A stretch of 64,000 bases of DNA from a candidate division WOR-3 bacterium UBA2202 (GCA_002327905.1 DCUY01000104.1:7904-71903), one strand, 5' to 3'; positions 2,789 to 47,281 are shown, counted from the stretch's first letter. Translations and numbers: made by a program. Notes: generated by a model not told the origin, from the sequence alone.

Positions 2789-4095
2789 CCGATTCCTCTG
2801 TAATTTTTTCCGCTCTTTCTTTCAGGAAATAAATTGACAAGATCAATTATAAGGACATCTTTACCTTTATAATTATTCAGTATCTCTCTGTATGAATTAT
2901 CTTTATTAGCGATTACAACCATATCAACTTTTTCAAGCATTTTTATCGGGTCGCTCTCCATCAGAGTCGAAATATGCTTTATCTCCCTCTCGATGAATTC
3001 TTTGTTTGTTCCCATGATATTTGCGAGATGCACATTCTCATCATATATGTAAACATCTTTTCCCTTGCCGAGAAGCTTTTCAACCAAAAGAACCGCTGGG
3101 GATTCTCTCAGGTCATCCGTTCCGTTCTTAAAACTTATTCCGAATATTCCGACTTTAGGCGATTTTTCCTTAATTATATTTTGAAATGCCCATTCAACAT
3201 GAAGATCATTTGAATTCATAATATTCTCCACAACAGGCATGTCCACGCCTATTTTCTTTCCTTCATACGATAAAGCCCTTACATCTTTCGGCAGACATGA
3301 ACCGCCGAACGCGAATCCCGGTCTAAGATAGTATTCTGATATATTGAGTTTCCTGTCCATTATGAAAATATCAATCACTTCTCTTGAATCAATGTTCTTT
3401 CTTTTGCAGAATCTTGACACCTCATTTGCAAAATCCACTTTAAGAGCATGAAATGCATTATTTACATATTTCAGCATCTCAGCGGTCCGTATTGCAGTGA
3501 CAATGAACTGACATTCAAGAAATGAGTACATTTTTCTGATCGTCTTTTCACTTGATTCGCATTCGCATCCGAGAAGGGTGTACGGAGGATTATAAAAATC
3601 ATTGACTGCGTTTCCCTCTCTTAAAAACTCCGGATTGGCGGCAATATCAAAATCCTTTTTTCTCTTCAGTCCTGATTTTGCCTCGACTATTTCAGCATAC
3701 TTGTCTACAGTGCCGGGCATTGAAGTTGACCTTATCAGAACAATGTGAAAAGAATTTTTTTCCTTCAGCACTTCTCCAATCTCTTCGGCAGTTTTGAATA
3801 TATAAGAGAGGTCAACCTCTCCGGTCTCTCTCGACGGAGTGCCTACGCATATCAGAGATATGTTAGTCTCCATCACAGCCTGTTTTATATCGCCGGTAGC
3901 AACAAGATTTTTACTTGCAGTGACTTTTTTGACTATCTCACCCACATAAGGCTCAACTATAGGAGAGACTCCGGCATTGACCTGTTCTATCTTGTCCCTG
4001 CTCACCTCGACTCCCAGAACCTTATAGCCCTGCTCTGCAAGGCAGGCGGCGGATATTATTCCCACATACCCAAGTCCGAATACTGAAATTTTCAT
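2782..4095 (-). CDS. ugd: UDP-glucose 6-dehydrogenase
   Basis: MKISVFGLGYVGIISAACLA NAD-binding N-terminus; catalytic GGSCLPKDVRAL motif; 437 aa. Supplies UDP-GlcA to the adjacent UXS. Confidence 0.75.
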   Translation of the reverse strand: MKISVFGLGYVGIISAACLAEQGYKVLGVEVSRDKIEQVNAGVSPIVEPYVGEIVKKVTASKNLVATGDIKQAVMETNISLICVGTPSRETGEVDLSYIFKTAEEIGEVLKEKNSFHIVLIRSTSMPGTVDKYAEIVEAKSGLKRKKDFDIAANPEFLREGNAVNDFYNPPYTLLGCECESSEKTIRKMYSFLECQFIVTAIRTAEMLKYVNNAFHALKVDFANEVSRFCKRKNIDSREVIDIFIMDRKLNISEYYLRPGFAFGGSCLPKDVRALSYEGKKIGVDMPVVENIMNSNDLHVEWAFQNIIKEKSPKVGIFGISFKNGTDDLRESPAVLLVEKLLGKGKDVYIYDENVHLANIMGTNKEFIEREIKHISTLMESDPIKMLEKVDMVVIANKDNSYREILNNYKGKDVLIIDLVNLFPERKSGKNYRGIGW

Positions 4096-6281
4096 TGTTC
4101 ACCCTCTTCTTTTGAATGATAGTGATAATAATAGTGGTAGTAGTAATATCTACCGTAATAACTCGTCATGTTTATGTTATTGAAAACAAATCCTAAGACA
4201 TTGACATTCATGTTGAGGAGTATTTTATTTGCATAATGCAGGTCCCTCTTATGAGCCTTCTTGAATTGCACTACCCACAAGAGTCCGTCAGATATTTTTG
4301 AAAGTATCGTAGGATCTGCTATTGACAGCATCGGTGAAGTGTCAATGATTATATAATCGAACTGCTTTCTCAGTTCCTTGAATATAAGTTTTGTTTTGGG
4401 AGACTCTAAAAGCTCCGTTGAATGTGTGGTTCTCTCTCCATGAGGCATTATATATAAATTTGAAAGCGAGGATTGATGTATGCATTCGCTCAACTCAACA
4501 TCCTCTTTTATTGCATGAGACAAGCCCTTGCTCTTTTGCGGTATTTCAAAGATTCTGCTGATTGTCGGTCTGCGCAGATCACCATCGATTATGAGCGTGC
4601 GCTTATTCAGCTGAGAGAGCACAATTCCCAGATTAGCCACTGTAGTTGATTTTCCCTCTCCCTTGGTTGCTGAAGAGACAGTCATCATCTGATGTGGGTT
4701 TTCCTGCGAAAGATAAATTATATTTGTTCTTAAAATTTTGTATGATTCGCTTACAGGAGAACCTTCAGGAAGGTTTGTTATTATAGGAGATTTTGACGAC
4801 TGGGGTTCCGATTTCCCGTTATTCTCAGTTTTTTTAAGAATCAATGGGACACTGCCTAATGTTTTTATCTTAAATTCTCTTTCTATTTCATCAATATCCT
4901 TAATGGTGTCATCAATATATTCCTTTAAAAGCACGCTTCCGATTGCTATTATAAGAGACAAAAAGAATCCGAGAATCAGATTTCTGCTTGTCTTGGGAAG
5001 TATTGGCTTTGTTGTCAGAACAGCTTTGTCAATTATACGCACTGCTCCGAGTTTTCCGGCCTCCGCGACTCTTGATTCTTCATATTTGCTTCGAAGCATA
5101 AGATAAAGTTCTTCAGACACTTTTTTATCCCTCTCGAGGCGGGCCAATGAAATTTCCTTGAGAGGAACATGTTTCATCTTTGCTTCATATTCTTCAACTG
5201 CAGTTGTGAGAGCATTCAGCATTGACTCTTTGGTCTTCATATCCACCTGCAGAGAGAGTATTTCATCAATGATTCCTTCTGAATACTCCACAGGATTGGC
5301 AGAGATATACCGTTCCTTGAAATTGGATTTGCTTGTTTCAACAATTTGCGCTTTTATGTTGCTGATTCTATTTTTGACTTCAATTATCTTCGGATGAAGA
5401 GAATCGTATCCCAAAGAGAGATAATACGCATAATTGGATTCAAGAGTCTCCAATTCGTTTATGGAGCGGGAAATGAAAGGATTTGAAGTATTGAAAATAC
5501 CTTCTGCAAGAGCTTTCTGCGATTCATTCAGATTTTCCGTCAAAGCATTCAGCCTTGTCTTCGCAGTGTGAAGCTCAACCTCGATTGATTTTCTCTGCTG
5601 TTCATAAATTGATATTGTCTGAACTAAAATCTTTGTCTCCTCTGAAAGTTCAAGAATGGAGTTCCCCTCTTTGTATGTCTTCAGACGCTCCTCGGAATTT
5701 TTAAGTTCAGATTCAATCTTAGTCAGCTGTTCTTCAAGAAAATGCCTCACTTCGCTCAATTCGCCTCTCGTCATGTCAAGATTTATTGTGTGATACTGAT
5801 TCACAATTAAATTCGTTATGTAATAAGCATTGAAAGGAGTCTTGTCCCTGTATGATATCCTTAGTATGTCAGTATCCTTTATCGGTATCACTGAGAGTCC
5901 GCTTTTAATCAAAGACATCTTTCTCTCTTTTGATAATTTCTGCGTTTTCAGATAAACTGAATCCGGTGTCGAATCGTTTTCAATAGCAGTGACTACTCTT
6001 TCTATCAGAGAGCGCGATTGTATCATCTCTATGTGATTATTAATCAATGTCTGGCGCGGATTCATCTCCCTTATCGGGAAGAAAGATAGGCCTTTGTCGC
6101 TGTTTTCAATCAGTACAGTGGAATTTGATTGGTAAACAGGTCTTGAAAGCTTTGTAAAAACGAATATGAAGACAAATACCGCCAAAAATACAGAAAGCAG
6201 AAGGAACCGGTTCTCCATCAGCAGATACCAGTAAGTTCTTAGTTCCTTTCCATCCTCTTCAACCAATTTTTCTTGCATCAT
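4092..6281 (-). CDS. Polysaccharide co-polymerase / bacterial tyrosine autokinase (Wzc/GumC-like)
   Basis: N-terminal TM, long coiled-coil periplasmic region and a second TM. Walker A SATKGEGKSTTVANLG. C-terminal tyrosine cluster YYGRYYYYHYYYHYH. Confidence 0.8.
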   Translation of the reverse strand: MMQEKLVEEDGKELRTYWYLLMENRFLLLSVFLAVFVFIFVFTKLSRPVYQSNSTVLIENSDKGLSFFPIREMNPRQTLINNHIEMIQSRSLIERVVTAIENDSTPDSVYLKTQKLSKERKMSLIKSGLSVIPIKDTDILRISYRDKTPFNAYYITNLIVNQYHTINLDMTRGELSEVRHFLEEQLTKIESELKNSEERLKTYKEGNSILELSEETKILVQTISIYEQQRKSIEVELHTAKTRLNALTENLNESQKALAEGIFNTSNPFISRSINELETLESNYAYYLSLGYDSLHPKIIEVKNRISNIKAQIVETSKSNFKERYISANPVEYSEGIIDEILSLQVDMKTKESMLNALTTAVEEYEAKMKHVPLKEISLARLERDKKVSEELYLMLRSKYEESRVAEAGKLGAVRIIDKAVLTTKPILPKTSRNLILGFFLSLIIAIGSVLLKEYIDDTIKDIDEIEREFKIKTLGSVPLILKKTENNGKSEPQSSKSPIITNLPEGSPVSESYKILRTNIIYLSQENPHQMMTVSSATKGEGKSTTVANLGIVLSQLNKRTLIIDGDLRRPTISRIFEIPQKSKGLSHAIKEDVELSECIHQSSLSNLYIMPHGERTTHSTELLESPKTKLIFKELRKQFDYIIIDTSPMLSIADPTILSKISDGLLWVVQFKKAHKRDLHYANKILLNMNVNVLGFVFNNINMTSYYGRYYYYHYYYHYHSKEEGEQ

Positions 6282-6288: not shown

Positions 6289-7599
6289 TTATAATTTTAT
6301 TATGTTTTTACTCGAAATTCCCTTGAATCCGTTCCGAGTGTCAAAAATGACCTTTGAATGCTTTGCGTACCATTTGTAATCAAACTTTGTGTGATTTGTC
6401 AGAAGAATAACGCAGTCATAACTCTCAAGCTCTTTCTCCGAGATTGTATTTAAAACTCTTACTTTTTTGTGAGTTCCCCTCTCATCAATAAAATAATTCA
6501 CCATAGGGTCTATCACAGACACATTCGCTTTATCCTCTTTGAGAAGATGATAAACTTCGAAGGATGGAGATTCGCGCAGATCATCAATATCCTTCTTGTA
6601 TGCCATTCCCATAAGAAGAATTTTCGACCCGTTTATCGCGATTTTCCTTTTGTTTAATATTTCCGCGACTTTTCCCACAACGAATCTCGGCATATTTGTG
6701 TTTACATCAGACGAGAGTTCGATGAATCTGTTGTAGAAGTCATACATCTTCGCCTTCCATGACAGGTACATCGGATCAAGCGGAATACAATGTCCGCCTA
6801 TTCCGGGTCCGGGATAAAACGGCATAAAGCCGAATGGTTTTGTAGATGCCGCGTCTATAACATTCCACATATCTATTCCCATTCTGTGGCACATAATCGC
6901 AAGCTCATTCACAAGACCGATGTTCACCGCTCTGAAAGTATTTTCAAGAAGCTTAACCATCTCTGCCTCTTCCGGCGTGTTTACAGGAATAACTTTTTCA
7001 ATAACCTGTCCGTATAATGCCAATGAGAGGTCAGTATCCTTTTTTGTTATTCCGCCTATGACCTTTGGAGTATTCTTTGTATTGTATTTCGGATTTCCCG
7101 GGTCAACTCTCTCAGGAGAGAATGCCACAAAAATATCTTTACCGACTTTGTATCCCTCTTTTTCTATTTCATCCGCTATAAGCTCCCGAGTGGTTCCTGG
7201 ATATGTTGTAGATTCTAAAACAACAAGCATATCCTTATGAAGATATTTTCTGATGCTGTTCATGGAGGATGTTATATAAGAGATATCCGGATCTTTGCTC
7301 TTCTGAAGAGGAGTCGGAACAGCAATTGAAATACAGTCGGTTTTTTTCGCAACGGAATAATCCGTTGTCGGAATAAAATTTCCTTTTTTGATGCACTCTC
7401 TCACTTCAGAGTCTTTCACATCTATAATGTAGGATTTTCCCTTTTTCAGCATATTTATTTTTTCTTCAAGTAAATCAATTCCGTAAACAGTAAAACCCTT
7501 CTTTGCGAATTCCACTGCGAGAGGCAGACCGACATAGCCCATTCCCACTACTCCGATTACCGCCTTCTTAGTCTTGATTTTTTCCATCAAAGCATTCAT
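6289..7599 (-). CDS. UDP-N-acetyl-D-glucosamine/mannosamine 6-dehydrogenase (WbpA/WecC-like nucleotide-sugar dehydrogenase)
   Basis: VIGVVGMGYVGLPLAVEFAKKG NAD-binding motif, GGHCIPLDP catalytic Cys motif, 436 aa. Confidence 0.7.
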   Translation of the reverse strand: MNALMEKIKTKKAVIGVVGMGYVGLPLAVEFAKKGFTVYGIDLLEEKINMLKKGKSYIIDVKDSEVRECIKKGNFIPTTDYSVAKKTDCISIAVPTPLQKSKDPDISYITSSMNSIRKYLHKDMLVVLESTTYPGTTRELIADEIEKEGYKVGKDIFVAFSPERVDPGNPKYNTKNTPKVIGGITKKDTDLSLALYGQVIEKVIPVNTPEEAEMVKLLENTFRAVNIGLVNELAIMCHRMGIDMWNVIDAASTKPFGFMPFYPGPGIGGHCIPLDPMYLSWKAKMYDFYNRFIELSSDVNTNMPRFVVGKVAEILNKRKIAINGSKILLMGMAYKKDIDDLRESPSFEVYHLLKEDKANVSVIDPMVNYFIDERGTHKKVRVLNTISEKELESYDCVILLTNHTKFDYKWYAKHSKVIFDTRNGFKGISSKNIIKL

Positions 7600-8243: not shown

Positions 8244-11200
8244 TTATCCGAACAGGATGTCATCCATTGATGAGCTCTCCGAAGAGGACTCCTTGGATGA
8301 TTCACTCTCCATTTTTTTAAATGTTTTCTGAAATTCGCTTATCTGCCTCTCTTCTGCAAATTCTTTCACAGGAGATTTCTCAGAGGCAAAGTCAACATGC
8401 TTGACTGCAGGCTTCGACAATGTCTCAAATATATCCTGTCTTTTTTCTTCAGGATGTTTTTCTCTTTGGAATACATCAGTTGTCTTTTTCGATGCCTCTT
8501 CTGATTTTCCCATCCGCAATTCTCTTATCTCTGACTGCAGAATTTTGTTCTCTCTTAACAATCTCTCTGATGTCTCCTCAAGTTCCCTTATTTTCATAAT
8601 GCCGCCTGCAAAAGATTTCTCTTCAGGAATCCTCTTTGCATTTTCAAGCTCCAGTTCTTTTGTCTTCCTGTGAAGGGATTCGATCTCCTCTTTCGCTTTT
8701 ACAATCTGATTGTTCGTTCTTTGAAGAGATTCTCTTAGCTCCTTATTCTCTGAAAACAATTTGATCATCTCCGCATCAGCCCCAGATTTATCCTTTTCTG
8801 ATGCATTGACTTCAGTGAGGCGCTTATTCTCTTCCGTGAGAGTGTTTATTTCTTTTTCAATAGAATTCTTTTTCTTAGAAAGTTCTTCAAGGTGGAGATT
8901 CTCTGCGTCAAGTTTGGAATCAATCTGTTCTTTATCATCTGTCGCCTTCTTCAATTCTCTCTGAAGAGAGCTGTACTGTTCCTGCATCTGTTTTTCTATT
9001 TTTGCTATCTTAACCATCTTTTGAGTTGTATCTGAGAGTTCCTTTTTCAGATTTTCAAGTTTCACCTGATCATCCACAAATCCCTGTTGCATCTCTTGTC
9101 TCTTCGAACTCATGCGGGCTATCTCAGTGTTCTTCGATTTCAATTCCTCTGTAACACTGCTTAATTCCTTTCTGTATGTAAGCAGAGTCTTCTCCTTGTC
9201 TGAAAGTTCACTCTCAATGTTCTTTTTAATATTCTCTATTTTTTCTATTCCAAGAACAGCCGCAAGCTTCCTCTCCTGATTCTTTCTGAGAACAATGATT
9301 TCATCCAGTTTGTTCTTTATTTTCAGAAGTTGATTGAGGCTCATTTTTGCTTCAATTACCTGAGGAGCATCATCCTGCAGAGGCTTGTATTCCCTTATAT
9401 TGGGAAAATCAGTTTCGATTCTCTCCACCTTTTCATTAAGCTCCTCAAAATCCCTCTTCCTCTCTTCAATGATTGTTCTCGTCTTTATCTCTTCCGCTTT
9501 AAGCTCCTCTATCTCCTGTGCAAAACTCTCCTTCTGCAGTCTGACATCCTCTAAATCTACGGAAGCCATTTTTATGCTCATCTGCAAGCCGTTAAGCCTC
9601 TCCTGTGTCTCTTTCAATTCTGCTCCGCATTTGACTGCTTCCGACTCTTTTTCCTTCAGCCATTTTTCAAGTTCGTCTTTGTCTGACCTTAGGGAGACTG
9701 TCTCATTCTTCAGTTCTATCAGTTCTTCATCAAGAGCCTGCTTCTCCTTCTCCATATCTTCAATTGCAGAAGATACTCCCCTCATCCTGTCTTTAATCTC
9801 ATTCTCTATATTGACCTCTCTGTCATGAAGCTTTGCAATTTTAGCATCCATTGACTCTATTTCTTTCTTCTTTGAATCAAATTCTTCATCTATAATGGCA
9901 AGCTGTGTCTCAGCCTCTTCCATTTTAATTTTCATCTCGGAAAATGCTTTTTCTGAGGATTCGTTTTTGTCCTTAATTTGCTTTTCAATATCCTCAAGAA
10001 TCTCTTCCTGCTCAAGCACTTCCAATTTATATTTGTCAATTTCATTCATTATGTGCGTCTTCTCTTCTGTCTTCTTTGCTATCTCCTCCACAAGTGTCTT
10101 TCTTTCAAGCTCTTTTCCGTTGAAATTAGCGAGTATCATTTCAGCATTGGCTTTTAATTTCTCAAGCTCGCTTTTGTCTTCAATTATACTCTCTTTCAAA
10201 GACGAATCCTCTTCCTTGAGATCTTTTATACTCTTATCCAGTTCAATTTTTTCTTTCCTTGTCTTTTCAATATCGTTTATTAGAGCAGTCTTTTGTTTCT
10301 CATACTCAGCCATTTCATTCTTAATCTCCACATATCTGTCGGAGAAACCCGTGTACTCCTTCATTATTTCATCAAGTTTGTTTTGATTCTGTTTTATTGA
10401 GGTCTTTATATTTTCGATTTTCTCGCTTTCGGATTCAACCTCTGCCTCAAGAATCTTTTTCTTCTTCTCATTGGAATTTACCAGAGTATCTATCTCATTG
10501 AAGTAGGATTCCCTGTCTTTTATCTGTTTCTCTTTGTCGGAAAGCATCTTAATCGCATTTTCATAATCCGTTCTTGCCCTCTTAACTTTCTCCTGATATT
10601 CACCAAGCTGTGTTTTTATCTGGTCATATTCCGATTTTGATTCCTGCAGTTCTTTCTCAACCGACTCTTTCTCCTTCTTGATTTTATCTCTTTCCTTTTC
10701 ATTCTGAGAAGTCTGATTCTTAATCTCCTCAGAATGCTTCTTTAACTCCTTTATCTTCTCTCCAATGTCCATCTCCTGATTCAGAGTCTTTCCCATTCCT
10801 GATTCAAGATTGTTCAAATATTCTCTCTTATCGCTTATTTTTCCTTCAAGGTCTTTAAGAGTATTCTTTTCTTCTTCAATTTTCTTTAATAAGATATCCT
10901 GCTCTTTCTTCGCCTTTTCAATTACTGTCCTTGTCTCCCTCTCCTGCTCTTTGTACTCCTCAAAATTGCTTTCAAGGTCAGAGCGCGATTTTTTCAGGTC
11001 TTCAATTGACTTTTTCAGAAAATTCAATTCATTCTCTGATTTTTCCTTTTCAAGTTTTATCTGATTAAGGTTAGTTCCCTCTCTGTCAATTTTGGATTTT
11101 GCCTCTCTAATCAATTCTTCAAATTCCTTTTTCTCTTTTATTGCAGTTTCAATACCATCATTGAGAGTCTGTTTATTATTTTTCTTTTCTTCAACTTCCT

Positions 11201-12521
11201 TTTTTATCTTCTGATATTCCGAGTCAACCTGATACAGTTTGTCGGCAGATTCTTTTTCAAGGAGTTCAAGTTTTGTTTTCTGCTTTTTATACTCCTCCGA
11301 TATTCTTGATAATTGGCCTTTCTCCCTTTCTATATCCCTTCTGACGGCATTTAATTGTCTGCCATTGTCAGCAATTTTTTCGCGCAGTTCCTTCTCTTCG
11401 ACTGATTTCTTCATTATTATCGAGACCAATTCGTTCAAACTCTCTTCATCTGCCTTTATTGTGGCAGTATCTAAAATTCTGTTTTCAACTGCAGGTTTTA
11501 CAGTATCGGAGTCAAAATCGACCATCTCCTCTTTTCTTCCGAAATTGTCGGTCTCTTCAACAAGAGTCTCTTTTGCCGGTTCCTCTTCGGGAGTCATATC
11601 AATCGCATCAAGCATGTCAGAAAGCCCCTCTGTTTCAATTTTGTCTGACATACTCTCTTTTTCCGCAACCGCAGATTCCTCCTCAGTAATTGAAGCACCT
11701 TCTTTTAAGTCATCCAAAGAAATTTCTTTTATTTGCTCTGTTTCAATTATCCGAGAAGCGGCTTTTGGCTCTTCTATCATTGTTTCAGTCTTATCTTCTT
11801 CAGTTTCAAGAACTATTTCTTCAGAGTCCCCGATTTTTATGTCAGTCGGAGCATCTGCATCCAAATCGACATCTTTTATATATGTCACATCATTATCTTC
11901 GCTTTCAAGCTTCCCTATTCCGTCCACAAGAGAATCAAGAGATTCTGTCTCCATAATACTTTCAGCTGACTTGACTTCCTGTTCAATGCCGCTCTGTTCA
12001 GGCATCTTCTCCTCTTTCTCTGCTTCAGTCCTTTTTATTTCCGGTGTTTCATCATTAATTTCAATCCCAAGATGAGTTTCTTCCTGAACCGCATCCAGAG
12101 AATCAGTCAAATCCATTAAATCCGAAAGGGTATTCTCTAAATTGTCTTCATTCTCTTCTTTTTTAATTTCTTCCGCAGAGACAGAGAGTCCTTCAGTTTT
12201 AGATTCATCAGCATCCTGCGCTGAAGCTTTATTGTCCTGCATTTCATCTATTGAATCAAGCATATCCGTGAGGGAATCTATGGATGATTCATCAGTCTCC
12301 GCTTGTGTTTGAGAATCAAGATCGGAAATTATATCCTCCAAACCTGAAGAGATATCTTCAATTGTCTCATCTTGGCTATCCGTCTTGTCCTGCTTGAGCA
12401 CAGCTCTCTCTTTTCTGTCTAAGGAAGCGGGTTTTATCCCGCGCCTTTTCTTTTTCAGGACAATCGGCGCAGATTTTTTATCGGATTTTTTTTCATCGTC
12501 TCCGTTTTTCTTAAAAAACAT
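8244..12521 (-). CDS. Giant (1425 aa) acidic coiled-coil protein of unknown function
   Basis: Uninterrupted ORF with a short basic N-terminus (KKSDKKSAPIVLKKKRRGIK) and no signal peptide or TM segment. An acidic 300-aa region carries five SLxDxLDxID-like motifs. It is followed by roughly 1000 aa of E/K-rich heptad-like sequence and an acidic, Ser-rich tail. The purine-rich coding strand generates long spurious Ser/Phe-rich ORFs on the opposite strand. Confidence 0.6.
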   Translation of the reverse strand: MFFKKNGDDEKKSDKKSAPIVLKKKRRGIKPASLDRKERAVLKQDKTDSQDETIEDISSGLEDIISDLDSQTQAETDESSIDSLTDMLDSIDEMQDNKASAQDADESKTEGLSVSAEEIKKEENEDNLENTLSDLMDLTDSLDAVQEETHLGIEINDETPEIKRTEAEKEEKMPEQSGIEQEVKSAESIMETESLDSLVDGIGKLESEDNDVTYIKDVDLDADAPTDIKIGDSEEIVLETEEDKTETMIEEPKAASRIIETEQIKEISLDDLKEGASITEEESAVAEKESMSDKIETEGLSDMLDAIDMTPEEEPAKETLVEETDNFGRKEEMVDFDSDTVKPAVENRILDTATIKADEESLNELVSIIMKKSVEEKELREKIADNGRQLNAVRRDIEREKGQLSRISEEYKKQKTKLELLEKESADKLYQVDSEYQKIKKEVEEKKNNKQTLNDGIETAIKEKKEFEELIREAKSKIDREGTNLNQIKLEKEKSENELNFLKKSIEDLKKSRSDLESNFEEYKEQERETRTVIEKAKKEQDILLKKIEEEKNTLKDLEGKISDKREYLNNLESGMGKTLNQEMDIGEKIKELKKHSEEIKNQTSQNEKERDKIKKEKESVEKELQESKSEYDQIKTQLGEYQEKVKRARTDYENAIKMLSDKEKQIKDRESYFNEIDTLVNSNEKKKKILEAEVESESEKIENIKTSIKQNQNKLDEIMKEYTGFSDRYVEIKNEMAEYEKQKTALINDIEKTRKEKIELDKSIKDLKEEDSSLKESIIEDKSELEKLKANAEMILANFNGKELERKTLVEEIAKKTEEKTHIMNEIDKYKLEVLEQEEILEDIEKQIKDKNESSEKAFSEMKIKMEEAETQLAIIDEEFDSKKKEIESMDAKIAKLHDREVNIENEIKDRMRGVSSAIEDMEKEKQALDEELIELKNETVSLRSDKDELEKWLKEKESEAVKCGAELKETQERLNGLQMSIKMASVDLEDVRLQKESFAQEIEELKAEEIKTRTIIEERKRDFEELNEKVERIETDFPNIREYKPLQDDAPQVIEAKMSLNQLLKIKNKLDEIIVLRKNQERKLAAVLGIEKIENIKKNIESELSDKEKTLLTYRKELSSVTEELKSKNTEIARMSSKRQEMQQGFVDDQVKLENLKKELSDTTQKMVKIAKIEKQMQEQYSSLQRELKKATDDKEQIDSKLDAENLHLEELSKKKNSIEKEINTLTEENKRLTEVNASEKDKSGADAEMIKLFSENKELRESLQRTNNQIVKAKEEIESLHRKTKELELENAKRIPEEKSFAGGIMKIRELEETSERLLRENKILQSEIRELRMGKSEEASKKTTDVFQREKHPEEKRQDIFETLSKPAVKHVDFASEKSPVKEFAEERQISEFQKTFKKMESESSKESSSESSSMDDILFG

Positions 12522-12532
12522 AAATCCCCCTT

Positions 12533-13426
12533 TTAACTTCTGGGATGATATGCATTATAAATCTCTTTTATGAATTTTCTGCTCACATGAGTGTAAATTT
12601 CAGTAGTGATAATGCTTGAATGCCCCAGCATCTCCTGAACTGACCTGAGGTCCGCTCCTCCTTCAAGAAGATGAGTCGCGAATGAATGTCTTAAAATATG
12701 CGGGTGAAGATGAATCTTCAGACCTGCCTTTATCGACCTCTCCTTGAGTATGTTCCACACTGACATTCTGCTGAGCTGTCCGCCGAATCTGTTAAGGAAA
12801 AGATATTTTGACTGTTTGGAATTTAAAACAGGCCTTGAAGAAGCAAGATAATTATTAATCGCCTTTATTGCAGTTGAGCTTATAGGTATTATCCTCTCCT
12901 TCATTCTTTTTCCGAGAACAATGACAAACTCTTCTTTGAAATTTATTGATTCCATTGTGAGATTGACTGACTCGGAGACCCTCAGACCGCATGCGTAAAT
13001 TGTTTCAAGAAGAGCTCTGTCCCTTAAAGACATCCAGTCATCTCCCGATATTGATTCAAGAAGCAGATTTATCTCCTCCATTGTCATTGAATCCGGAAGA
13101 TTCTTATTCAGTTTCGGGGTCTCAATATTCTCCGACGGATTTTTTTCTATTTTGCCTTCAGAGAGGAGAAACATGAAAAAATTCTTTATGCTTGTCAGTT
13201 TTCTTGATAGTGTCGTATGCTTCGCGTCAAGGTCAAGCAGACTCTTCATGAAAGACATTATATCTTCCGATTCAGTTTTTTGAATATCCGTATTCTTCTC
13301 TTTCAAGTATTCCATAAACTGCTTTATATCCTTTAAATAAAATTCCACAGTCTCTTTTGAGCAGTTTCTCTCAGAGAGAAGATATGAGGAATACTCTTTA
13401 AGTATTGAAATGTCAAAAGATTTCAT
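12533..13426 (-). CDS. Tyrosine site-specific recombinase, XerC/XerD family
   Basis: C-terminal catalytic region HPHILRHSFATHLLEGGADLRSVQEMLGHSSIITTEIYTHV (R-H-R-Y pentad context). The likely start is MKSFDIS at 13426, not the upstream M at 13456. Confidence 0.85.
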   Translation of the reverse strand: MKSFDISILKEYSSYLLSERNCSKETVEFYLKDIKQFMEYLKEKNTDIQKTESEDIMSFMKSLLDLDAKHTTLSRKLTSIKNFFMFLLSEGKIEKNPSENIETPKLNKNLPDSMTMEEINLLLESISGDDWMSLRDRALLETIYACGLRVSESVNLTMESINFKEEFVIVLGKRMKERIIPISSTAIKAINNYLASSRPVLNSKQSKYLFLNRFGGQLSRMSVWNILKERSIKAGLKIHLHPHILRHSFATHLLEGGADLRSVQEMLGHSSIITTEIYTHVSRKFIKEIYNAYHPRS

Positions 13427-14789
13427 ACGAACTTCCTCTGCTTGGAATCTCCACATTATTGTATCCGTTCATTTTCAGACTATTGGTAAATGCATCCATC
13501 TGGCTTGATTCGCCGTGGACCAAGAATATCTTCTCAGGAGTTGTCTCCTTTACATGCCTCATCAGGTCGTTTTTATCAGCATGCGCGCTGTATTCATTCA
13601 TTATGTAAACATCAGCTCTCACCTGAAACTCTTCAGAGAATATCCTCACCCTCTTTTCATGGTCTGCTATTCTTCTTCCAAGTGTGTTTTCAGCCATAAA
13701 TCCTGTTATCAGAATTGTATTTTTTTTGTCTGTTATATTGTGCTTCAGATGATGCAGGATTCTCCCTGCTTCGCACATTCCGCTTGAGGATATTATTATG
13801 GACGGCTTCTTAAGCATATTCAGCATCTTTGAATCTTCCACTTCGGTTATATAGTGGAGATTTTCAAATTCAAAGGGATTCTGATTATTATTGAATAATT
13901 CCATCATCTCTTTATCATAGCATTCAGGATGATTCTTAAAAACATCAGTCGCATTTGAACTGAGAGGAGAGTCGACATATATTCCTATTTTCGGGATTCT
14001 GTCATCCTTCTGCAGATTAAAAATGTCAAAGAGCAATTCCTGTGTGCGGCCCACAGAGAATGACGGAACTACAAGATTTCCCTTTTTCCCTCTGGTCTCT
14101 TCAATTATTCTTTTCAGCTCATCCTGAGACATCTGAATATTTTTATGGCTACGATCTCCGTAAGTGGTTTCCGTTATCAGAATTTCCACATCACCCACTC
14201 TGTCCGGATTTCTTATTACAGGCATGTGCTCCCTTCCAAGGTCGCCTGTAAAAAGAATTTTCTTGCCCTTGAGTTCGAAAAGTATCTGAGCTGACCCGAG
14301 AATGTGGCCTGCCTCTATAAAAGAGAATTTCAGATCATTGTCAATATTTATGGTTTTGTAGTAGCTGATTCCTTTTATGTGCTCTATCGCATGCTCTGCA
14401 TCCCGAACTGTATAAAGCGGCTCCTTTAAAGGCTCATTCTTTTTTTTCAGCTTTTTATTAAGGTATTCAATATCCTTCTCATGAATATGTCCGCTGTCTC
14501 TCAGCATCAAATCGAGAAGGTCGCGCGTCGCATCTGTTGAAATAATGTCTCTGTTGTATCCCTGTTTTACGAGGTTCGGCAGATTGCCGCTGTGGTCTAT
14601 ATGGGCATGTGATATTATAACCATATCTATTGATTTCGGATCAAAGGGGAAATTTTTATTTATCTCTTCGCTCTCGCTCCTTCTCCCCTGATGAAGTCCG
14701 CACTCCACAAGAATCTTCTTTGAATTATGCTCTATTAAGAACATGGAACCTGTCACTGTGCGCGTTGCTCCGAAAAATGTTATTTTCAT
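13413..14789 (-). CDS. Beta-CASP metallo-beta-lactamase-fold ribonuclease (COG1236, TTHA0252/RNase J-like)
   Basis: MKITFFGATRTVTGSMFLIEHNSKKILVECGLHQG N-terminus, HAHIDHSGNLP metal-binding motif, 458 aa. Confidence 0.7.
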   Translation of the reverse strand: MKITFFGATRTVTGSMFLIEHNSKKILVECGLHQGRRSESEEINKNFPFDPKSIDMVIISHAHIDHSGNLPNLVKQGYNRDIISTDATRDLLDLMLRDSGHIHEKDIEYLNKKLKKKNEPLKEPLYTVRDAEHAIEHIKGISYYKTINIDNDLKFSFIEAGHILGSAQILFELKGKKILFTGDLGREHMPVIRNPDRVGDVEILITETTYGDRSHKNIQMSQDELKRIIEETRGKKGNLVVPSFSVGRTQELLFDIFNLQKDDRIPKIGIYVDSPLSSNATDVFKNHPECYDKEMMELFNNNQNPFEFENLHYITEVEDSKMLNMLKKPSIIISSSGMCEAGRILHHLKHNITDKKNTILITGFMAENTLGRRIADHEKRVRIFSEEFQVRADVYIMNEYSAHADKNDLMRHVKETTPEKIFLVHGESSQMDAFTNSLKMNGYNNVEIPSRGSSYEIF

Positions 14790-14790: not shown

Positions 14791-15459
14791 TCAGTACCTG
14801 TAAAGAAATATTTTCTTCATGCTGTTTTCAAATAAGAGTTTTTTACCGCATTCTCCGTGCCCCGGATATATCATTGAATCCATCTTCAGTGCTGTCCAGA
14901 AAGATCGCACTGAAGCGACTAACTGGAGAGAGTCGCCGCCCGGAAGGTCTGTCCTTCCAAGTCCTTCTGTAAAAATCAAATCCCCTGAGAAAAAGAAATT
15001 TCCTGTTATTAAAGTGATTGAGCCGGGAGTATGACCCGGAGTCTCTTTTACAAAAAACCTGTTCTCCCCAAGTTCAAGATGGTCATTATTCTTAAGCACT
15101 ATATCGCTTTTTGGCGACACATAGGATATGCCGACAAATTCGGACATGTTCAGAGCGGGTGATGTCAGGTATTCCGCATCCTCAGCTCCAATGCATATCA
15201 AAGGATTATATTTCTCCTTCAAAAACTTATTGCCTGAAATATGGTCAAAGTGCCCGTGCGTATTTACTATGTATTTGACAGTCAATTCCCTCTCGTCAAG
15301 GTATTTTGAAATCGCCTTTCCGTCCGCAGGGTCTATCACTATGCAAGTATTATCCGGAGTGTTGCTTATTATATGGGTATTGGTGTCAATCTCACCGTTT
15401 AATATGGTATCTATCCTAAAACTCGCATTAAGGTTTCTCATAACCTTAAATAATATCAT
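14791..15459 (-). CDS. MBL-fold metallo-hydrolase (glyoxalase II-like)
   Basis: THGHFDHISGN and TPGHTPGS motifs; 222 aa. Confidence 0.7.
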   Translation of the reverse strand: MILFKVMRNLNASFRIDTILNGEIDTNTHIISNTPDNTCIVIDPADGKAISKYLDERELTVKYIVNTHGHFDHISGNKFLKEKYNPLICIGAEDAEYLTSPALNMSEFVGISYVSPKSDIVLKNNDHLELGENRFFVKETPGHTPGSITLITGNFFFSGDLIFTEGLGRTDLPGGDSLQLVASVRSFWTALKMDSMIYPGHGECGKKLLFENSMKKIFLYRY

Positions 15460-15629: not shown

Positions 15630-17135
15630 TTATCTTATCAAAAAATGCTTTTCTTTGATTGTTCTATTATTCTCTTTCAGTTTTATAAAGTATATCCCGT
15701 TCTTCAAGTGTCTGATGTCTGTTTTGTGCGTTCCGCTTGCTTTTGATTCTTCTTTGATTACCTCTCTGCCTGATATGTCATAAACTGTCAATGTGCCTTG
15801 TGTATTTGTATTCCATATTATGTATTGATTTTGTATTTGCATTTTTAGCTCATGGCTCACAGCGCATGGCACAAGGTTTTTTGCGCACGGCTCATGGCTC
15901 TCTTCTATCCCATTCACTGCCACCGAGTCTTCAAAGATTCTTGTGCATTCATCTCCAACACTCTGGCCGCAGCCGCTGAAGATTATCTCATCATAGCCGT
16001 TCTTATTAAAGTCATGACACTTTATATGGCTCTGGATTGTATTGTATGTAGGGTCAGTGTATTCCCAGCTCATTTCAAACTGATTGTCTCCTGTTGACTC
16101 CCATACCTCTATATGTCTCCCGCCACATATCACAAGTTCATTCAAACTATCCCCATCAACATCTCCATAATCCATATCCCCTGCATACACTAAGCTGTAA
16201 TCTGTATCTACTTCAAAGTCTCTTCTCCATATTGTATCATACACTCCCGTGCCGCTTGTGTCCTCATAAATTATAAATGCATAAGAATTAGGTGGACCTA
16301 AATAATTTAGTTGATATTTCATTATCTCATTTGTTCCATCTCTGTCTATATCAGGTAATATCAATAGCGCCCTAGATCCATATCCTCCTTCAGTTAATGA
16401 ATCCTGTTTTATGAAAGTGGTATCTGATAAATTTTCTGATTCAAAGAAATACAAATAATTCTCCGGTGATGTTATCACCATCTCTGTTAATCCATTTCCA
16501 TCTATATCACCAATATCCATTGCACTTTGTACTCTTGTACTTTCTGCAAATGTATTCAATATTTCATACTGATTATCTCCCGTACAGGTAAAATAATACC
16601 AGCCATAACCATTAGTCGGTGTTGTTATTTCAGGTATGCCTCCACCATAAATCCTTTCTATTCCATCACCTTTTAGATTGTTGGAAATGCTTAAGTAATA
16701 AACAGATCTATACAGTGTATCGGATTGCCATACTAAATTGTCAAAAAATGATGTGCTGTCAATCTGCTCTAATATCATCAGATGCATATATTCATCATCT
16801 CCTGGCATCCCAATAAGCAAATCTTTGAGTCCATCTTGATCAAAGTTACCAGTGCCTGAAGTCCATATAAGATTCGTATCTACAATGGAATCAATCAATA
16901 CATAAGTATTTTCACTTTGGTATTCATAAAATAATATTTTTCGTCCATTATTTATTATAAGCTCTTCATCAAAATCATTATTGTAATCAGATATTTGTTG
17001 TCTTGTAAAAGACATACTTGGATGCACCCCTCTCTGTATATAACTTATCTCTTCAAATGATTCTGCGCGTGTTTTCAAGAATAAGCATAATGTAATAAAA
17101 AACAATAATCTAAATATTTTCATTTTTTTCCTCAT
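15630..17135 (-). CDS. Secreted FG-GAP/VCBS-repeat protein with T9SS C-terminal sorting domain
   Basis: Signal peptide MRKKMKIFRLLFFITLCLFLKTRA. Repeated DxDGxG calcium-binding-like motifs (DQDGLKDLLIG, DIDGNGLTEMV, DVDGDSLNELVI, DFNKNGYDEIIF). C-terminus ...GTLTVYDISGREV...GIYFIKLKENNRTIKEKHFLIR, typical of a type IX secretion CTD. Confidence 0.7.
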   Translation of the reverse strand: MRKKMKIFRLLFFITLCLFLKTRAESFEEISYIQRGVHPSMSFTRQQISDYNNDFDEELIINNGRKILFYEYQSENTYVLIDSIVDTNLIWTSGTGNFDQDGLKDLLIGMPGDDEYMHLMILEQIDSTSFFDNLVWQSDTLYRSVYYLSISNNLKGDGIERIYGGGIPEITTPTNGYGWYYFTCTGDNQYEILNTFAESTRVQSAMDIGDIDGNGLTEMVITSPENYLYFFESENLSDTTFIKQDSLTEGGYGSRALLILPDIDRDGTNEIMKYQLNYLGPPNSYAFIIYEDTSGTGVYDTIWRRDFEVDTDYSLVYAGDMDYGDVDGDSLNELVICGGRHIEVWESTGDNQFEMSWEYTDPTYNTIQSHIKCHDFNKNGYDEIIFSGCGQSVGDECTRIFEDSVAVNGIEESHEPCAKNLVPCAVSHELKMQIQNQYIIWNTNTQGTLTVYDISGREVIKEESKASGTHKTDIRHLKNGIYFIKLKENNRTIKEKHFLIR

Positions 17136-17194: not shown

Positions 17195-20185
17195 TTACTT
17201 TATTATATTTATTCTGCTTGTCTCTGTCTCATCTCCATTCTTTAGAACTGCGAAGTAAACTCCGGTTTTATAGATATTGCTCAATTTTATACTGTTTGTT
17301 CCTTTGTTTACTTTTGCAATTATAGATGTTACTTCTCTGCCTGAGACATCATACACTCTTACTTCAACATTGACTTCTTTTTCGGATGTATAATTAATAG
17401 ATACTTTATCTTTGATCGTAAAGATATTTTTGTTTATCTCTTTTGATTCTGTTATTGGTGCAAATATCTTTATCTTATTTGATACTGCAACCACTTCTTC
17501 TCCGTCTGTTTCGTACTGGTAAACCAATACCTCTGCATCTCTATTTGGGTTGCCTCTCTTCCTGTCTATGCTTACAACAATGCTGTAATCCTGATATGTC
17601 TCCTTTGGAAGTGTTATCTCAGTAGTATCAGGTCTGTTGGTATGTCCTGTTACTACTGCATATACTTCTCCGTCTATCTGGATTATCTGTGGCTTTACTG
17701 GGCTTCCCTCCGAGGTAATTACCTTAACCGTATAATTCATCTCAGGATTGAGTCCGTTTATTGTTGTATTAAGTTGTTCAACAGGTTCTTTAACTGCTAT
17801 GTATTCATAAAGAGGAGATGTTGTTACCGTTTCTACTGTATCCTCCGGTTCCGATTCGATAAATGTAAATGCAGTAGGATAATAGTCCCTTGTCATCCAT
17901 TTAATCCTATAGTTCCCGTTGCTTCCTTCACTCCATATATGATAGCCTCTTACCTTCGTCATCAATAAAGGTTTTGTCTCAAATTCAGTCGTATGTATTG
18001 AGTCTGCTCCTGTATATACACTTATATCGTTTCCGCTGTAGTTGGTTATGAGTTTGTTGCTGTTATTGATATAGTTTATGAATATACCGTTGCTTGCTTT
18101 GGGATACTCATTCTTTCCCATTGTTACATTCACCTTTACTGCATTTGCATCAATTATTCCTTTACTCAATTTTCTTCTGTATATGTCTTTTGTTTCGTCT
18201 GTATTTACCGCCTCATATACAAATGATGTTGCATCTCCATAATAATCTGTTGTAGGTGCATTACAAATTTGGTTGGCGTTGCTGACTGTAGTTGGCTGAG
18301 TCCATTGCATAATGTTTGTGTTCCAAATCTTAGCTATGTAGTTTGTTGATGTATCTATAAATCCTATTACTTGTGCGGTAAAATCTGTTGTATTATACAA
18401 TGAAAACACAGGTGATTTCACAGGAACTTTATCATATTCACCCAAATAAGATACAATAGTGTCATAGTAAATACCGTCTGTATTCAACTCATTCATGCTT
18501 GTTAATATGTAATCTCCCTCTTCTCTCTGAAGATAACTATGATTTATGTATCCAAGATATGTCTGGCTTGTCGTACTATTATAACCCAGAACCGGCTCGC
18601 TCAGCAATATCGCAGGATTTACCAATGTATCCTCAGGTATCCACGGACTTGATTTGATAGAATAACTGTAAGAGCTCATCCCATCTCTCCATACTGCTAT
18701 CAGTCCGCTCGCAGTTCTTGTTAGTACTGGCTCAGTTCCTCTGCCCAATACCTCAAGATCCCATGTCTGTCCAAAATCTATACTCCTTCCATACACCACA
18801 CTTTCACCTGTCGTATAAACCATGTCCATCTCGTCAGTTTTTAGCTTTCTTACTATATGCTCCTGATTGTTTGTTCCGAAGGTTTCAGAAGTATTGCTCC
18901 ACATATATGCGCCTATTGTTGACCTGTATGCAACATATCCCACTCCGTCGATTGTAAGTTTCAGCGGTCTGTTGCTATTCAGATATGCCGGTATGAAAAC
19001 CCATCCATACTCATCCGTTATCCCCTGATAATAGAATCCTCCCGGTTGATTGTCTGTCAGTGTTACTGTCAAGCCCGGAATTCCTGTTATTCCCTTCGTT
19101 TCATCTTCTCTTGATGCCTCTATATATATCATATTATCCTTTATTACAGGAACCTCTGTCGGCTTCCCAACACGCTCAATCACCTTATAATCGACATCTA
19201 TTTCATGTCTCTCTATCTGTGTTAGCTCATTAGTATTTTGAACCACAAAATAGTATGGCAGTGTATCTGTAGCAGTAAAAGCAATTCTAATTACTCCATT
19301 TACATCGGCACTCTTTTCTGCTGTTATAATCTGTCCCTTATTATTCTCAATATGTGCTGATGCATTTGTAAATGGATTACCATCTGTACATCTCGTTAAT
19401 CTGATGCCCACTGTATCTAAAAATTCATATTTCACTGTTCGGTCAACAATCTGTGATACAAAAAAACTGTCCATGTCAGGTTCACTACTTATATCATTGT
19501 AGTCGCTCGTATGCTCTTGCACAAATTGCTTTTCAGTATATATGTATACTCTTATCGGTTTTGATGTATCTTCAAATCTAAAAGTGTCACCCAATATTAT
19601 ATAATTGCCATTTTGAATGTTCATTATTATTGCTTTTTCTGGAGCTTGTTCAGTTTGATTACTTGTTGTATCATATTTTACGATATTGTTGTTTACAATT
19701 ATTCGCCAGTAATAATGATTGACACCATCACGCCCCCTTCCTCCTGTTAACTGTATCCCTATTGAATTCCCATCATTTAAATGCAATTCTAGTGTGTTAT
19801 AATTATACAGATTATACCAATTATATACCACTAATTGAATATTGCCATGATCGAAAAGGGCATTTGACAGTAATTCCGGTATCTCCTGATAAACTCCACC
19901 TCTTATTAAATGAGTATCTGCCGGTAAAAAAACTTTTAGATATTTATCTTCTTCATATATATCTATTCCACTAATTGAATTAAACACCGTCCACTTGGAA
20001 TCAATTATACTATCATTGAATCCATCTGAGATATTCTTTATTAAATCTGCTTGTAAATTGCCGATTGGCAATAATGATAACAACATCAATCCAGCCAATA
20101 CTAACATAAATCGTAAGTATCGGGGGGGGGGGGGGTTAAACGCTTTTCGAAATTGTTCATACTTTCCTCCTTTGGTTAAATTCAA
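17195..20185 (-). CDS. Large secreted protein with T9SS C-terminal sorting domain; 5' end carries a C14 homopolymer (candidate phase-variable gene)
   Basis: 996-aa frame. Signal-peptide-like RFMLVLAGLMLLSLLPIGNLQA. C-terminus ...VRVYDVSGREV...GVYFAVLKNGDETETSRINIIK (T9SS CTD). The ORF-track start is a TTG at 20185 with no SD. The only SD-equipped start (AGGAGG 20170..20165, ATG 20160..20158) is out of frame by one nucleotide across the C14 tract. Confidence 0.7.
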   Translation of the reverse strand: MNLTKGGKYEQFRKAFNPPPPRYLRFMLVLAGLMLLSLLPIGNLQADLIKNISDGFNDSIIDSKWTVFNSISGIDIYEEDKYLKVFLPADTHLIRGGVYQEIPELLSNALFDHGNIQLVVYNWYNLYNYNTLELHLNDGNSIGIQLTGGRGRDGVNHYYWRIIVNNNIVKYDTTSNQTEQAPEKAIIMNIQNGNYIILGDTFRFEDTSKPIRVYIYTEKQFVQEHTSDYNDISSEPDMDSFFVSQIVDRTVKYEFLDTVGIRLTRCTDGNPFTNASAHIENNKGQIITAEKSADVNGVIRIAFTATDTLPYYFVVQNTNELTQIERHEIDVDYKVIERVGKPTEVPVIKDNMIYIEASREDETKGITGIPGLTVTLTDNQPGGFYYQGITDEYGWVFIPAYLNSNRPLKLTIDGVGYVAYRSTIGAYMWSNTSETFGTNNQEHIVRKLKTDEMDMVYTTGESVVYGRSIDFGQTWDLEVLGRGTEPVLTRTASGLIAVWRDGMSSYSYSIKSSPWIPEDTLVNPAILLSEPVLGYNSTTSQTYLGYINHSYLQREEGDYILTSMNELNTDGIYYDTIVSYLGEYDKVPVKSPVFSLYNTTDFTAQVIGFIDTSTNYIAKIWNTNIMQWTQPTTVSNANQICNAPTTDYYGDATSFVYEAVNTDETKDIYRRKLSKGIIDANAVKVNVTMGKNEYPKASNGIFINYINNSNKLITNYSGNDISVYTGADSIHTTEFETKPLLMTKVRGYHIWSEGSNGNYRIKWMTRDYYPTAFTFIESEPEDTVETVTTSPLYEYIAVKEPVEQLNTTINGLNPEMNYTVKVITSEGSPVKPQIIQIDGEVYAVVTGHTNRPDTTEITLPKETYQDYSIVVSIDRKRGNPNRDAEVLVYQYETDGEEVVAVSNKIKIFAPITESKEINKNIFTIKDKVSINYTSEKEVNVEVRVYDVSGREVTSIIAKVNKGTNSIKLSNIYKTGVYFAVLKNGDETETSRINIIK
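20122..20135. repeat. G14 (C14 on the coding strand) homopolymeric tract inside the 5' end of the T9SS cargo gene
   Basis: Counted directly: cggggggggggggggtt at 20121..20137. Encodes PPPP in the annotated frame. Confidence 0.9.
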
Positions 20186-23286: not shown

Positions 23287-23576
23287 ACCAGAAGAATCTG
23301 AATATCAAAATAGAGAAAGATGTGGCAGAGGGAAAATACGCGAATCTTGTGCTGACAGTTCATTCACAGTCGGAATTCATACTTGATTTTGCGAAGATGC
23401 TACCCGGGCTCACTGAGGCATCTGTGCACACGCGCATAATAATGACTCCGTCGCATGCCAAGATGCTTCTGAAATCCATTGAGGAGGCAATGAAAAAATA
23501 CGAATCCACATTCGGAGAGATTAAAATTGATGAGCATGCGAAAGACGGAAAGAGCATAGGCTTCACAAACAATTAG
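23283..23576 (+). CDS. DUF3467-family small protein
   Basis: NIKIEKDVAEGKYANLVLTVHSQSEFILDFAKMLPG...HTRIIMTPSHAKMLLKSIEEAMKKYESTFGEI, characteristic of DUF3467. Overlaps the aminopeptidase stop by 4 nt. Confidence 0.55.
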   Translation: MNQKNLNIKIEKDVAEGKYANLVLTVHSQSEFILDFAKMLPGLTEASVHTRIIMTPSHAKMLLKSIEEAMKKYESTFGEIKIDEHAKDGKSIGFTNN

Positions 23577-44144: not shown

Positions 44145-44151
44145 CCAATCC

Positions 44152-47269: not shown

Positions 47270-47281
47270 CAAGGAAAAGAA

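Follow-up and report, generated by a model that had tools for sequence, protein, structure and literature searches.

Large cytoplasmic coiled-coil proteins with non-coiled ends, a hinge-like interruption and no enzymatic domain are known from bacteria in the form of Scy, FilP and crescentin, for which a scaffold role has been proposed. Scy of Streptomyces coelicolor is a ParA-binding polarity scaffold of 1326 amino acids (aa) with a non-canonical coiled-coil repeat domain (PMC3718342). Here we describe a protein of the same general build, for which we likewise propose a scaffold role. This protein of 1425 aa, referred to below as the giant, is encoded at positions 8244-12521 of a stretch of 64,000 nucleotides (nt) from the candidate division WOR-3 bacterium UBA2202 (GCA_002327905.1, DCUY01000104.1:7904-71903), which was analysed at its full length and is called the window. 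No sequence relationship of the giant with Scy, FilP or crescentin was detected, and they belong to different phyla. Moreover, whereas the coiled coil of Scy is non-canonical, the giant has a canonical heptad rod with a hydrophobic periodicity of 3.50-3.51 in residues 361-1035 and of 3.47 in residues 1056-1335, and Scy has no counterpart of the 320-residue acidic, disordered region with repeated putative docking helices that is present in the giant.

The arms of SMC, Rad50, MukB and JetC are also long heptad coiled coils, and they gave the best, though weak, matches to the giant. The conserved break in its rod could correspond to an antiparallel fold-back apex of the SMC type. However, the giant lacks the Walker A/B head, the hinge domain and the zinc hook of SMC, Rad50 and MukB, it scores far below the respective cutoffs, and its putative arms would be unequal (675 versus 280 residues) with uncompensated indels. 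Analogies can also be drawn with hub and tether proteins. The HubP and FimV hubs are large and very acidic, and their repeated acidic motifs possibly recruit several partners, as may be the case for the giant. These hubs carry a signal or transmembrane (TM) segment together with a periplasmic LysM domain, have longer tandem acidic repeats and have no coiled coil of ~975 residues. In contrast, the giant is devoid of a signal, a TM segment and LysM, and no tandem repeat was detected in it, either in the DNA or by self-BLAST. The LD motifs (LDxLLxxL) of paxillin, short amphipathic helices of acidic character whose hydrophobic residues are spaced as Phi-x-x-Phi-Phi-x-x-Phi, serve as multivalent docking sites along a disordered region, and golgins are long eukaryotic coiled-coil tethers with binding sites at the rod ends. 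The giant would be analogous to both, but paxillin and golgins are eukaryotic, and homology is neither implied nor detected.

We propose that the giant is a cytoplasmic, non-enzymatic scaffold or tether composed of a head, a rod and a tail, a reading to which we assign a probability of roughly 0.5. It is probably a structural scaffold, since it is rod-shaped, matches no known family and occurs in four related bacteria only. If this model holds, the giant would represent a new sequence family that belongs to an already known type of protein, the giant bacterial coiled-coil scaffolds.

The giant gene is real, conserved and under constraint

The open reading frame (ORF) of the giant runs over 1425 codons from an ATG start to a TAA stop, and the complete coding sequence (8244-12521) specifies a protein of 165 kDa with a pI of 4.8. 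An initial annotation, made from the DNA sequence alone, had described a single uninterrupted ORF at this position, which was borne out; the strand, which had been left unstated, is the minus strand, and this also applies to all features of the giant given below. At the GC content of the window (37.6%), ~6.7% of random codons are stops, and by our own arithmetic the probability of 1425 stop-free codons is ~1e-43. Reading of the sequence revealed a Shine-Dalgarno-like AAGGGGG (12526-12532, minus strand) at 4 nt before the ATG, within the 11-nt gap that follows the xerD stop. The GC content of the gene equals that of the neighbouring genes, and no tandem DNA repeats were found in it.

The ORF is intact, with 100% nucleotide identity, on contigs from two JGI metagenomes (L001 and L002), and the giant is present at 99.9% identity in the NCBI metagenome-assembled genome (MAG) GCA_003543575.1, where the gene call is split solely by a run of N. 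Altogether, three independent assemblies of this species contain an intact giant. On an old draft contig (JGI 3300000558; L015, 4468-8756) the giant was called as three ORFs of 533, 629 and 171 aa. The splits stem from clustered 1-nt A insertions adjoining Ns, and hence from errors of the assembly.

Orthologues were identified in close relatives, as judged from XerD, which is 71-72% identical among the four lineages. The MAG CA_2019_TPIn_165 (L006) encodes an orthologue of 1422 aa with 54% identity, and a Ga0172375 contig (L013) encodes one of 1447 aa, so that full-length orthologues with 54-57% identity are available from two other species. The orthologue of the MAG STE_119 is split over two contigs (L005 and L014).

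That the ORF lies in three pieces on the draft contig, and that long antisense ORFs also arise in purine-rich coding DNA, might suggest that the giant is no functional gene at all, being either a pseudogene or a long ORF that arose spuriously in purine-rich DNA of low complexity. We regard this as extremely improbable and as effectively refuted by the conservation across species. The breaks are single-A insertions beside Ns in an ORF that other assemblies show intact, the orthologues hold the frame for more than 1420 codons with strongly uneven and motif-specific conservation, and the rod indel in L013 amounts to exactly one heptad. The Shine-Dalgarno sequence, the absence of tandem DNA repeats and the neighbour-like GC content likewise argue against an artefact. 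The giant is therefore a real, conserved gene under constraint.

A basic tip is followed by an acidic region with conserved motifs

The N-terminal tip of the giant (residues 1-40, 12402-12521) is basic, with a net charge of +9 and a pI of 10.4, and it is disordered in the AlphaFold2 model. Two sequences of this tip, MFFKK and P(I/V)VLKKK-GIKPAS, do not vary among the four species. The N-terminus itself, MFFKKNGDDEKK, has no hydrophobic core.

The region that follows (residues 41-360, 11442-12401) is acidic, with a net charge of -78 and a pI of 4.05, and is mostly disordered. In a single-sequence AlphaFold2 model of residues 1-430, the predicted local distance difference test (pLDDT) score was below 50 for 243 residues, and helices were modelled at residues 50-99 and 118-151 (pLDDT 70-87). 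Two further helices, at 195-204 and 298-307, are short and of low confidence, and from about residue 345 onwards a helix was modelled with confidence. Across the four species, the linkers of the acidic region diverge and carry indels, whereas its motifs are positionally conserved. Five related motifs, as had been proposed at the outset, were located here. Motif 1 (residues 57-70, 12312-12353; ISSGLEDIISDLDS) reads LS(A/S)GLDDLISDLD in the orthologues, has its hydrophobic residues at i, i+3, i+4 and i+7, and was modelled as a helix with a pLDDT of ~80. Motif 2 (residues 81-96, 12234-12281; IDSLTDMLDSIDEMQD), in which DSLTDML is invariant in the four species, was modelled as a helix with a pLDDT of ~85, and motif 3 (residues 132-148, 12078-12128; LSDLMDLTDSLDAVQEE), with an invariant SDLMD, as a helix with a pLDDT of 71-87. 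Motif 4 proper comprises residues 194-209 and forms, with an adjoining conserved block, the element at residues 194-221 (11859-11942; SLDSLVDGIGKLESED..DVTYIKDVDLD), in which SL..L..GIG.LE and V.YIK.VDLD are invariant; the short low-confidence helix at residues 195-204 belongs to this motif. Motif 5 (residues 300-314, 11580-11624; LSDMLDAIDMTPEEE) contains an invariant S.MLDA and coincides with the short helix modelled at residues 298-307. A sixth conserved island, missing from the initial annotation, was found at residues 327-339 (11505-11543; FGRKEEMVDFDSD), where GRK..M.D..S is invariant.

In all five motifs, hydrophobic residues follow the pattern Phi-x-x-Phi-Phi-x-x-Phi, interspersed with acidic ones, and we therefore regard them as short acidic amphipathic helices. 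The core pattern [ST][DG][LM][LM]D, which was picked post hoc, occurs three times in residues 41-360, as compared to 0.17 occurrences expected from composition-preserving shuffles.

The rod is of constrained length and contains a highly conserved core

In a simple heptad scan, the register was continuous between residues ~361 and 1335, which corresponds to a coiled coil of ~975 residues rich in E, K, L and I. This agrees with the E/K-rich coiled coil of about 1000 residues that had been predicted. The first rod segment (residues 361-1035, 9417-11441) is a proline-free canonical heptad coiled coil with a hydrophobic periodicity of 3.51, and no proline is present anywhere in residues 344-1039. 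The only interruption of the rod is a Pro-rich break at residues 1036-1055 (9357-9416; ETDFPNIREYKPLQDDAPQV), which is nearly invariant and at which the helix is broken in the AlphaFold2 model. The second segment (residues 1056-1335, 8517-9356; periodicity 3.47) contains an indel hot spot past residue 1213 (~8883-8885), with insertions of 36 aa in L006 and of 54 aa in L013 and STE_119. By contrast, residues 361-1213 are free of indels in the four species, save for one exact 7-aa deletion in L013. This near-absence of indels indicates that the length of the first 850 residues of the rod is constrained, while the part towards the C-terminus tolerates changes in length. At 0.1485 nm per residue, a fully extended rod with its chains in register would be ~145 nm long. 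Self-BLAST detected no internal repeats in the giant.

The most conserved part of the giant is a core at residues 976-1190 (8952-9596), with ~90% identity to the L006 orthologue as compared to 54% overall. Along the rod, identity amounted to ~90% in residues 976-1110 and 1141-1185, to ~80% in 706-810 and to ~77% in 556-600; the intervening residues 1111-1140 are less conserved. Across the species, the heptad positions b, c and f were 77-83% invariant in residues 976-1035, 1056-1110 and 1141-1185, whereas elsewhere in the rod they were mostly 16-43% invariant, with intermediate values (53-60%) in 556-600 and 706-810. Such conservation of solvent-facing positions exceeds the structural need of a coiled coil and points to a binding or assembly surface.

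In the AlphaFold2 model of residues 940-1210, the core consists of long helices (pLDDT 83; predicted template modelling score, pTM, 0.47) with breaks at residues 986-989 and 1039-1052. The conservation profile showed mirror symmetry about the Pro-rich break (r = 0.63 at centre 1048), a value that places this centre in the top two out of 650. It is possible, although not established, that residues ~895-1035 and 1055-1195 pack against each other as an antiparallel hairpin. An SMC-style fold-back of the entire rod is disfavoured by the uncompensated indels and the unequal arms.

The tail and the predicted location of the giant

The last 90 residues (1336-1425, 8247-8516) form a non-coiled tail that is rich in serine (16.7%), as had been noted before, and that ends in the conserved sequence FKKME.ES(S/T)KES(S/T)S..DDI(L/F)FG-COOH. 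The terminal DDILFG may resemble the tail of SSB (DDDIPF), a likeness weakened by the extra C-terminal Gly. The possibility that the tail is an FtsZ-like C-terminal peptide was considered and rejected, as the FtsZ peptide of the host, DDDIEKPAFLRR, is unlike DDILFG.

No Walker A motif ([AG]xxxxGK[ST]) and no TM-like stretch (18 residues with at least 12 hydrophobic ones) occur anywhere in the giant. Together with the lack of a hydrophobic N-terminal core, this upholds the view that the protein has no signal peptide, TM segment or nucleotide-binding motif. No match to the sorting domain of the type IX secretion system (T9SS; Por_Secre_tail) was found in the giant, unlike in the proteins encoded nearby at 15630-17135 and 17195-20185. 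Nor does the giant look like a surface fibrillar protein of the M-protein kind or a T9SS cargo, as it has neither a signal peptide nor a C-terminal sorting signal (LPXTG or T9SS type), its C-terminus being Ser-rich and non-coiled. These features suggest that the giant is cytoplasmic.

The giant matches no known family

Searches of Pfam with the whole giant gave no match at E <= 0.01, and with four overlapping pieces at E <= 1 they gave only sub-threshold matches to generic coiled coils. Among these were Rod_CreS (PF19220; 18.7 bits, cutoff 100) and Filament (PF00038; 12.8 bits, cutoff 40). The same Pfam searches detected neither a DivIVA domain nor LysM accompanying a TM-like stretch. There was also no Pfam match to SMC_hinge or a zinc hook; the rod break is the Pro-rich sequence given above, and in place of a CxxC the giant has a single Cys, at residue 965. 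In NCBIfam, the SMC models TIGR02168 and TIGR02169 scored 82 bits against 567 and 75 bits against 729, respectively, with the best stretches confined to arm positions, and further generic helix-rich families were matched. PADLOC returned the arms of JetC and LmuB only (17-25 bits), PHROGs gave nothing meaningful, and phmmer of the giant against all PDB chains gave no match. With the model of the core, Foldseek found only generic antiparallel helical hairpins of weak likeness in the PDB, none at E < 1e-3. Clear homology to SMC or M-protein, which the initial annotation had named as an observation that would overturn it, was accordingly not detected by profile, PDB or Foldseek searches.

With its head, rod and tail, its long heptad rod and its lack of a nucleotide-binding domain, the giant has the architecture of intermediate filament (IF)-like proteins. 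It could, beyond tethering, be a self-assembling IF-like filament that sets cell shape or polarity, and the basic head, the strictly conserved rod length and the highly conserved rod blocks, which recall IF assembly motifs, would all suit such a filament. Nevertheless, the scores for Rod_CreS and Filament are far below the cutoffs, and IF-like proteins do not usually possess an acidic, disordered stretch of 320 residues with motifs of the docking type. We consider a filament of this kind unlikely, albeit not far-fetched.

A model for the giant as a scaffold or tether

Of the roles suggested by the initial annotation, that of a cytoskeletal or scaffold element fits the layout, the rod, the docking-type helices and the C-terminal peptide, whereas the alternative of a chromosome-organisation element found no support, as detailed below. 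In the model that we propose, the rod would homo-oligomerise, with a parallel dimer as the simplest form. One end would be anchored to an anionic surface, which may be the inner membrane or nucleic acid, through the invariant MFFKK and the polybasic tip, while the acidic helices could offer one or more partner proteins a multivalent set of docking sites. The core, being conserved, would provide a partner-binding surface or a self-assembly junction and may fold as the antiparallel hairpin described above, and the C-terminal DDILFG peptide would dock another partner. Functionally, the giant would then be comparable to Scy, FilP or crescentin, or to hubs such as HubP, and homologous to none of them. 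Given its fixed length (~850 residues, one exact heptad excepted), the rod might serve as a ruler or spacer, a function that would be rare and interesting in bacteria.

Several points weigh against this model. The AlphaFold2 runs were performed on single-sequence monomers; the pTM of the core was only 0.47 and the N-terminal model was of low confidence. The symmetry about the break is matched by that about a rival centre at residue 915 (r = 0.65), which leaves the hairpin suggestive only, and the functions proposed for the tip and for the C-terminal peptide are inferred. In addition, the tight and conserved linkage to xerD and sugar genes could point to a role more specific than that of a generic scaffold.

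A more elaborate version of the scaffold or tether model can be envisaged, in which the giant is an undescribed, lineage-specific cytoskeletal tether. Its ~145-nm rod would be held by the tip at the membrane or nucleoid, and the five LD-like helices, the hairpin core with its conserved surface and DDILFG would position a multi-protein machine, such as the adjacent polysaccharide export apparatus or an XerD-linked division or terminus complex. We deem this version doubtful in its full extent. If true, the tether would be a bacterial analogue of eukaryotic scaffolds of the golgin or paxillin type. Should the scaffold or tether model hold in its general form, the giant would be a new family among the few giant bacterial coiled-coil scaffolds and the first from this uncultured lineage, which encodes T9SS-sorted proteins. 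As it stands, the giant is an orphan structural protein in four uncultured genomes, which is of modest general interest, and it makes no long-standing question testable. Its clear modular layout, with an anchor, docking helices, a fixed rod, a core and a terminal peptide, would make the fishing for partners straightforward.

The giant gene is located at the edge of a polysaccharide cluster

All genes in the vicinity of the giant are encoded on the minus strand. Upstream lie genes for a small metallo-beta-lactamase-fold (MBL) hydrolase (14791-15459), a beta-CASP metallo-beta-lactamase nuclease with Lactamase_B, Beta-Casp and RMMBL domains (13413-14789; Pfam) and, as the immediate neighbour, the tyrosine recombinase XerD (12533-13456), which scored 350.6 bits on TIGR02225 (cutoff 329.6). 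The XerC model gave 316.4 bits on this same gene, below its cutoff of 335.15. Thus, there is one Xer gene instead of the xerC/xerD pair that had been reported, the supposed xerC being the beta-CASP nuclease gene. The 3' end of the latter overlaps the xerD ORF by 44 nt, and its product scored 296 bits on the archaeal aCPSF1. It also scored 414.6 bits on NF045584 of NCBIfam (type VII CRISPR-associated Cas14), over model positions 1-425 of 612 and with a cutoff of 800. Being below the cutoff and restricted to part of the model, this match does not support a defence system at this locus, and we rejected that idea. In related loci, the order of the MBL, beta-CASP, XerD and giant genes is invariable.

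Downstream of the giant, a CMP-sugar-type cytidylyltransferase (PF02348; 7615-8241) is followed by an NDP-sugar dehydrogenase (6289-7599), a Wzc-like co-polymerase and tyrosine autokinase with Wzz, GNVR and AAA_31 domains (4092-6281), a UDP-glucose dehydrogenase (2782-4095) and an epimerase (1847-2788), with more polysaccharide genes beyond. Instead of being embedded in a polysaccharide operon, as had been stated, the giant gene sits at a boundary, on the 5' margin of the polysaccharide cluster, which it separates from the housekeeping trio of MBL, beta-CASP and XerD genes. The intergenic gaps are as tight as claimed (2-12 nt), with 11 nt between xerD and the giant and 2 nt between the giant and the cytidylyltransferase. 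No terminator-like site was seen between these three genes in a promoter and terminator scan that performed at background level and was uninformative. This arrangement makes it plausible that the giant, xerD and the sugar genes are co-transcribed. The order beta-CASP, XerD, giant and cytidylyltransferase is constant in each lineage whose contig extends far enough, but since the four lineages are close relatives, this constancy does not separate functional coupling from recent common ancestry.

These neighbours raise the question of a more dedicated role. On the downstream side, the giant could be a scaffold or regulator of the polysaccharide machinery, which might, for example, organise the Wzc-like autokinase/co-polymerase and the sugar-nucleotide enzymes at the inner membrane. 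Only 2 nt lie between the stop codon of the giant and the cytidylyltransferase start codon, a PF02348 gene follows the giant in all four lineages, and the NDP-sugar dehydrogenase, Wzc-like and UDP-glucose dehydrogenase genes come next in the window and in STE_119, with size-matched ORFs in L006. The lack of a terminator-like site would fit as well, given a scan at background level. However, gene order may simply have been inherited among such close relatives, the giant has no TM segment or enzyme domain, and the array is of mixed function, the upstream MBL, beta-CASP and XerD genes being unrelated to polysaccharides. We therefore view a role dedicated to polysaccharides as rather unlikely.

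On the upstream side, the giant could act with XerD in chromosome organisation or segregation, either as a headless SMC-like arm or as a tether of the terminus or nucleoid, with the basic tip making contact with DNA. Such a factor would agree with the polybasic N-terminus, with the fact that the best database likenesses are arms of SMC, Rad50 and JetC, and with the position at 11 nt from a bona fide XerD gene, which is kept in all four lineages. The notion, which the initial annotation had raised, draws on the adjacency to xerD and on a generic likeness to SMC arms, and there is no Walker A motif, ATPase head or hinge to go with it. The scores of 75-82 bits on the SMC models, with cutoffs of 567-729, come from alignments whose best stretches cover coiled-coil positions only, and the insertions of 36 to 54 aa at residue 1213 have no matching indel in residues 361-1035. 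Furthermore, no giant gene was found at the XerD loci of remoter, Marinimicrobia-like relatives (43% identity). Taking these observations together, a chromosomal role appears distinctly improbable. The polysaccharide, chromosome and filament readings are all weaker than that of a scaffold or tether.

Distribution of the giant family

When 1.84 billion cluster representatives were searched exhaustively by phmmer with residues 960-1200, the best-conserved part, a single protein was retrieved, namely a C-terminal fragment of the orthologue from STE_119. In a large protein collection that lacks both the full-length protein of the window and the L006 orthologue, no homologue was found with the full-length giant as the query, residues 1-413 retrieved only a fragment of the query itself, and the alignment of the core (A1) gave no match. 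The 533-aa piece from the draft contig L015 (P0001) is the sole form in which the giant of the window is represented there. Homology searches in this collection miss the family because only this fragment is present, and the negative results obtained with it are weak because the full-length giant and the L006 orthologue are missing. A search of metagenome and viral contigs with the core alignment gave nothing, the patterns chosen being uninformative and E/K-rich. A hand-made degenerate pattern for FPNIREYKP returned L013 and one chance match (L012) from the metagenome contigs. It did not return the JGI contigs that carry the window itself, which showed that the metagenome collection is devoid of them. 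The absence of the giant elsewhere is thus only suggestive, as these collections lack the JGI contigs and the full-length protein of the window. With this qualification, the searches suggest that the giant family is confined to four closely related uncultured lineages.

When the giant was compared with phage and plasmid collections by tblastn, no match was obtained, so that nothing suggests an origin from a mobile element. As the host encodes T9SS-sorted proteins, it presumably belongs to the FCB group, as judged from the distribution of T9SS.

Other features of the window

Rfam and tRNA scans of the 64-kb window gave no matches. The two T9SS-sorted proteins are encoded on the minus strand at 15630-17135 and 17195-20185; one has 501 aa with FG-GAP repeats and the other has 996 aa. 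A strong terminator-like hairpin is located between the two genes, at 17176-17145. The pair sits between the gene for a 622-aa membrane protein and the MBL gene, and it is absent from this place in L006 (5944-8636), which indicates a variable insertion beside a conserved block. The 622-aa protein (20246-22114, minus strand) is polytopic and without a Pfam match; it adjoins the block in L005, L006 and L001 (600-627 aa) and, judged by eye, looks like a glycosyltransferase of the GT-C type.

Further upstream, a ComEC-type protein with a Competence domain and a protein with a DnaJ domain are encoded at 23573-24913 and 25275-25937 (both minus strand), with no evident link to the giant. Two minus-strand ORFs at 27863-28537 and 29443-30714 resemble the N6_N4_Mtase profile of DNA methylases over its C-terminal third alone (~138-221 of 221). 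They may belong to a restriction-modification locus whose methyltransferases are split, rearranged or unusual.

A dcw cluster is present on the plus strand at 43033-58399, ~31 kb from the giant. MraW/RsmH, a penicillin-binding protein of the FtsI type, FtsA and FtsZ were recognised in it by Pfam, and the intervening ORFs are of mur or ftsW size, as judged by size alone. The C-terminal end of the FtsZ encoded in this cluster is DDDIEKPAFLRRASD. Directly after the cluster, an ORF at 58750-59667 (minus strand) encodes a toxin-like kinase with a HipA_C domain.

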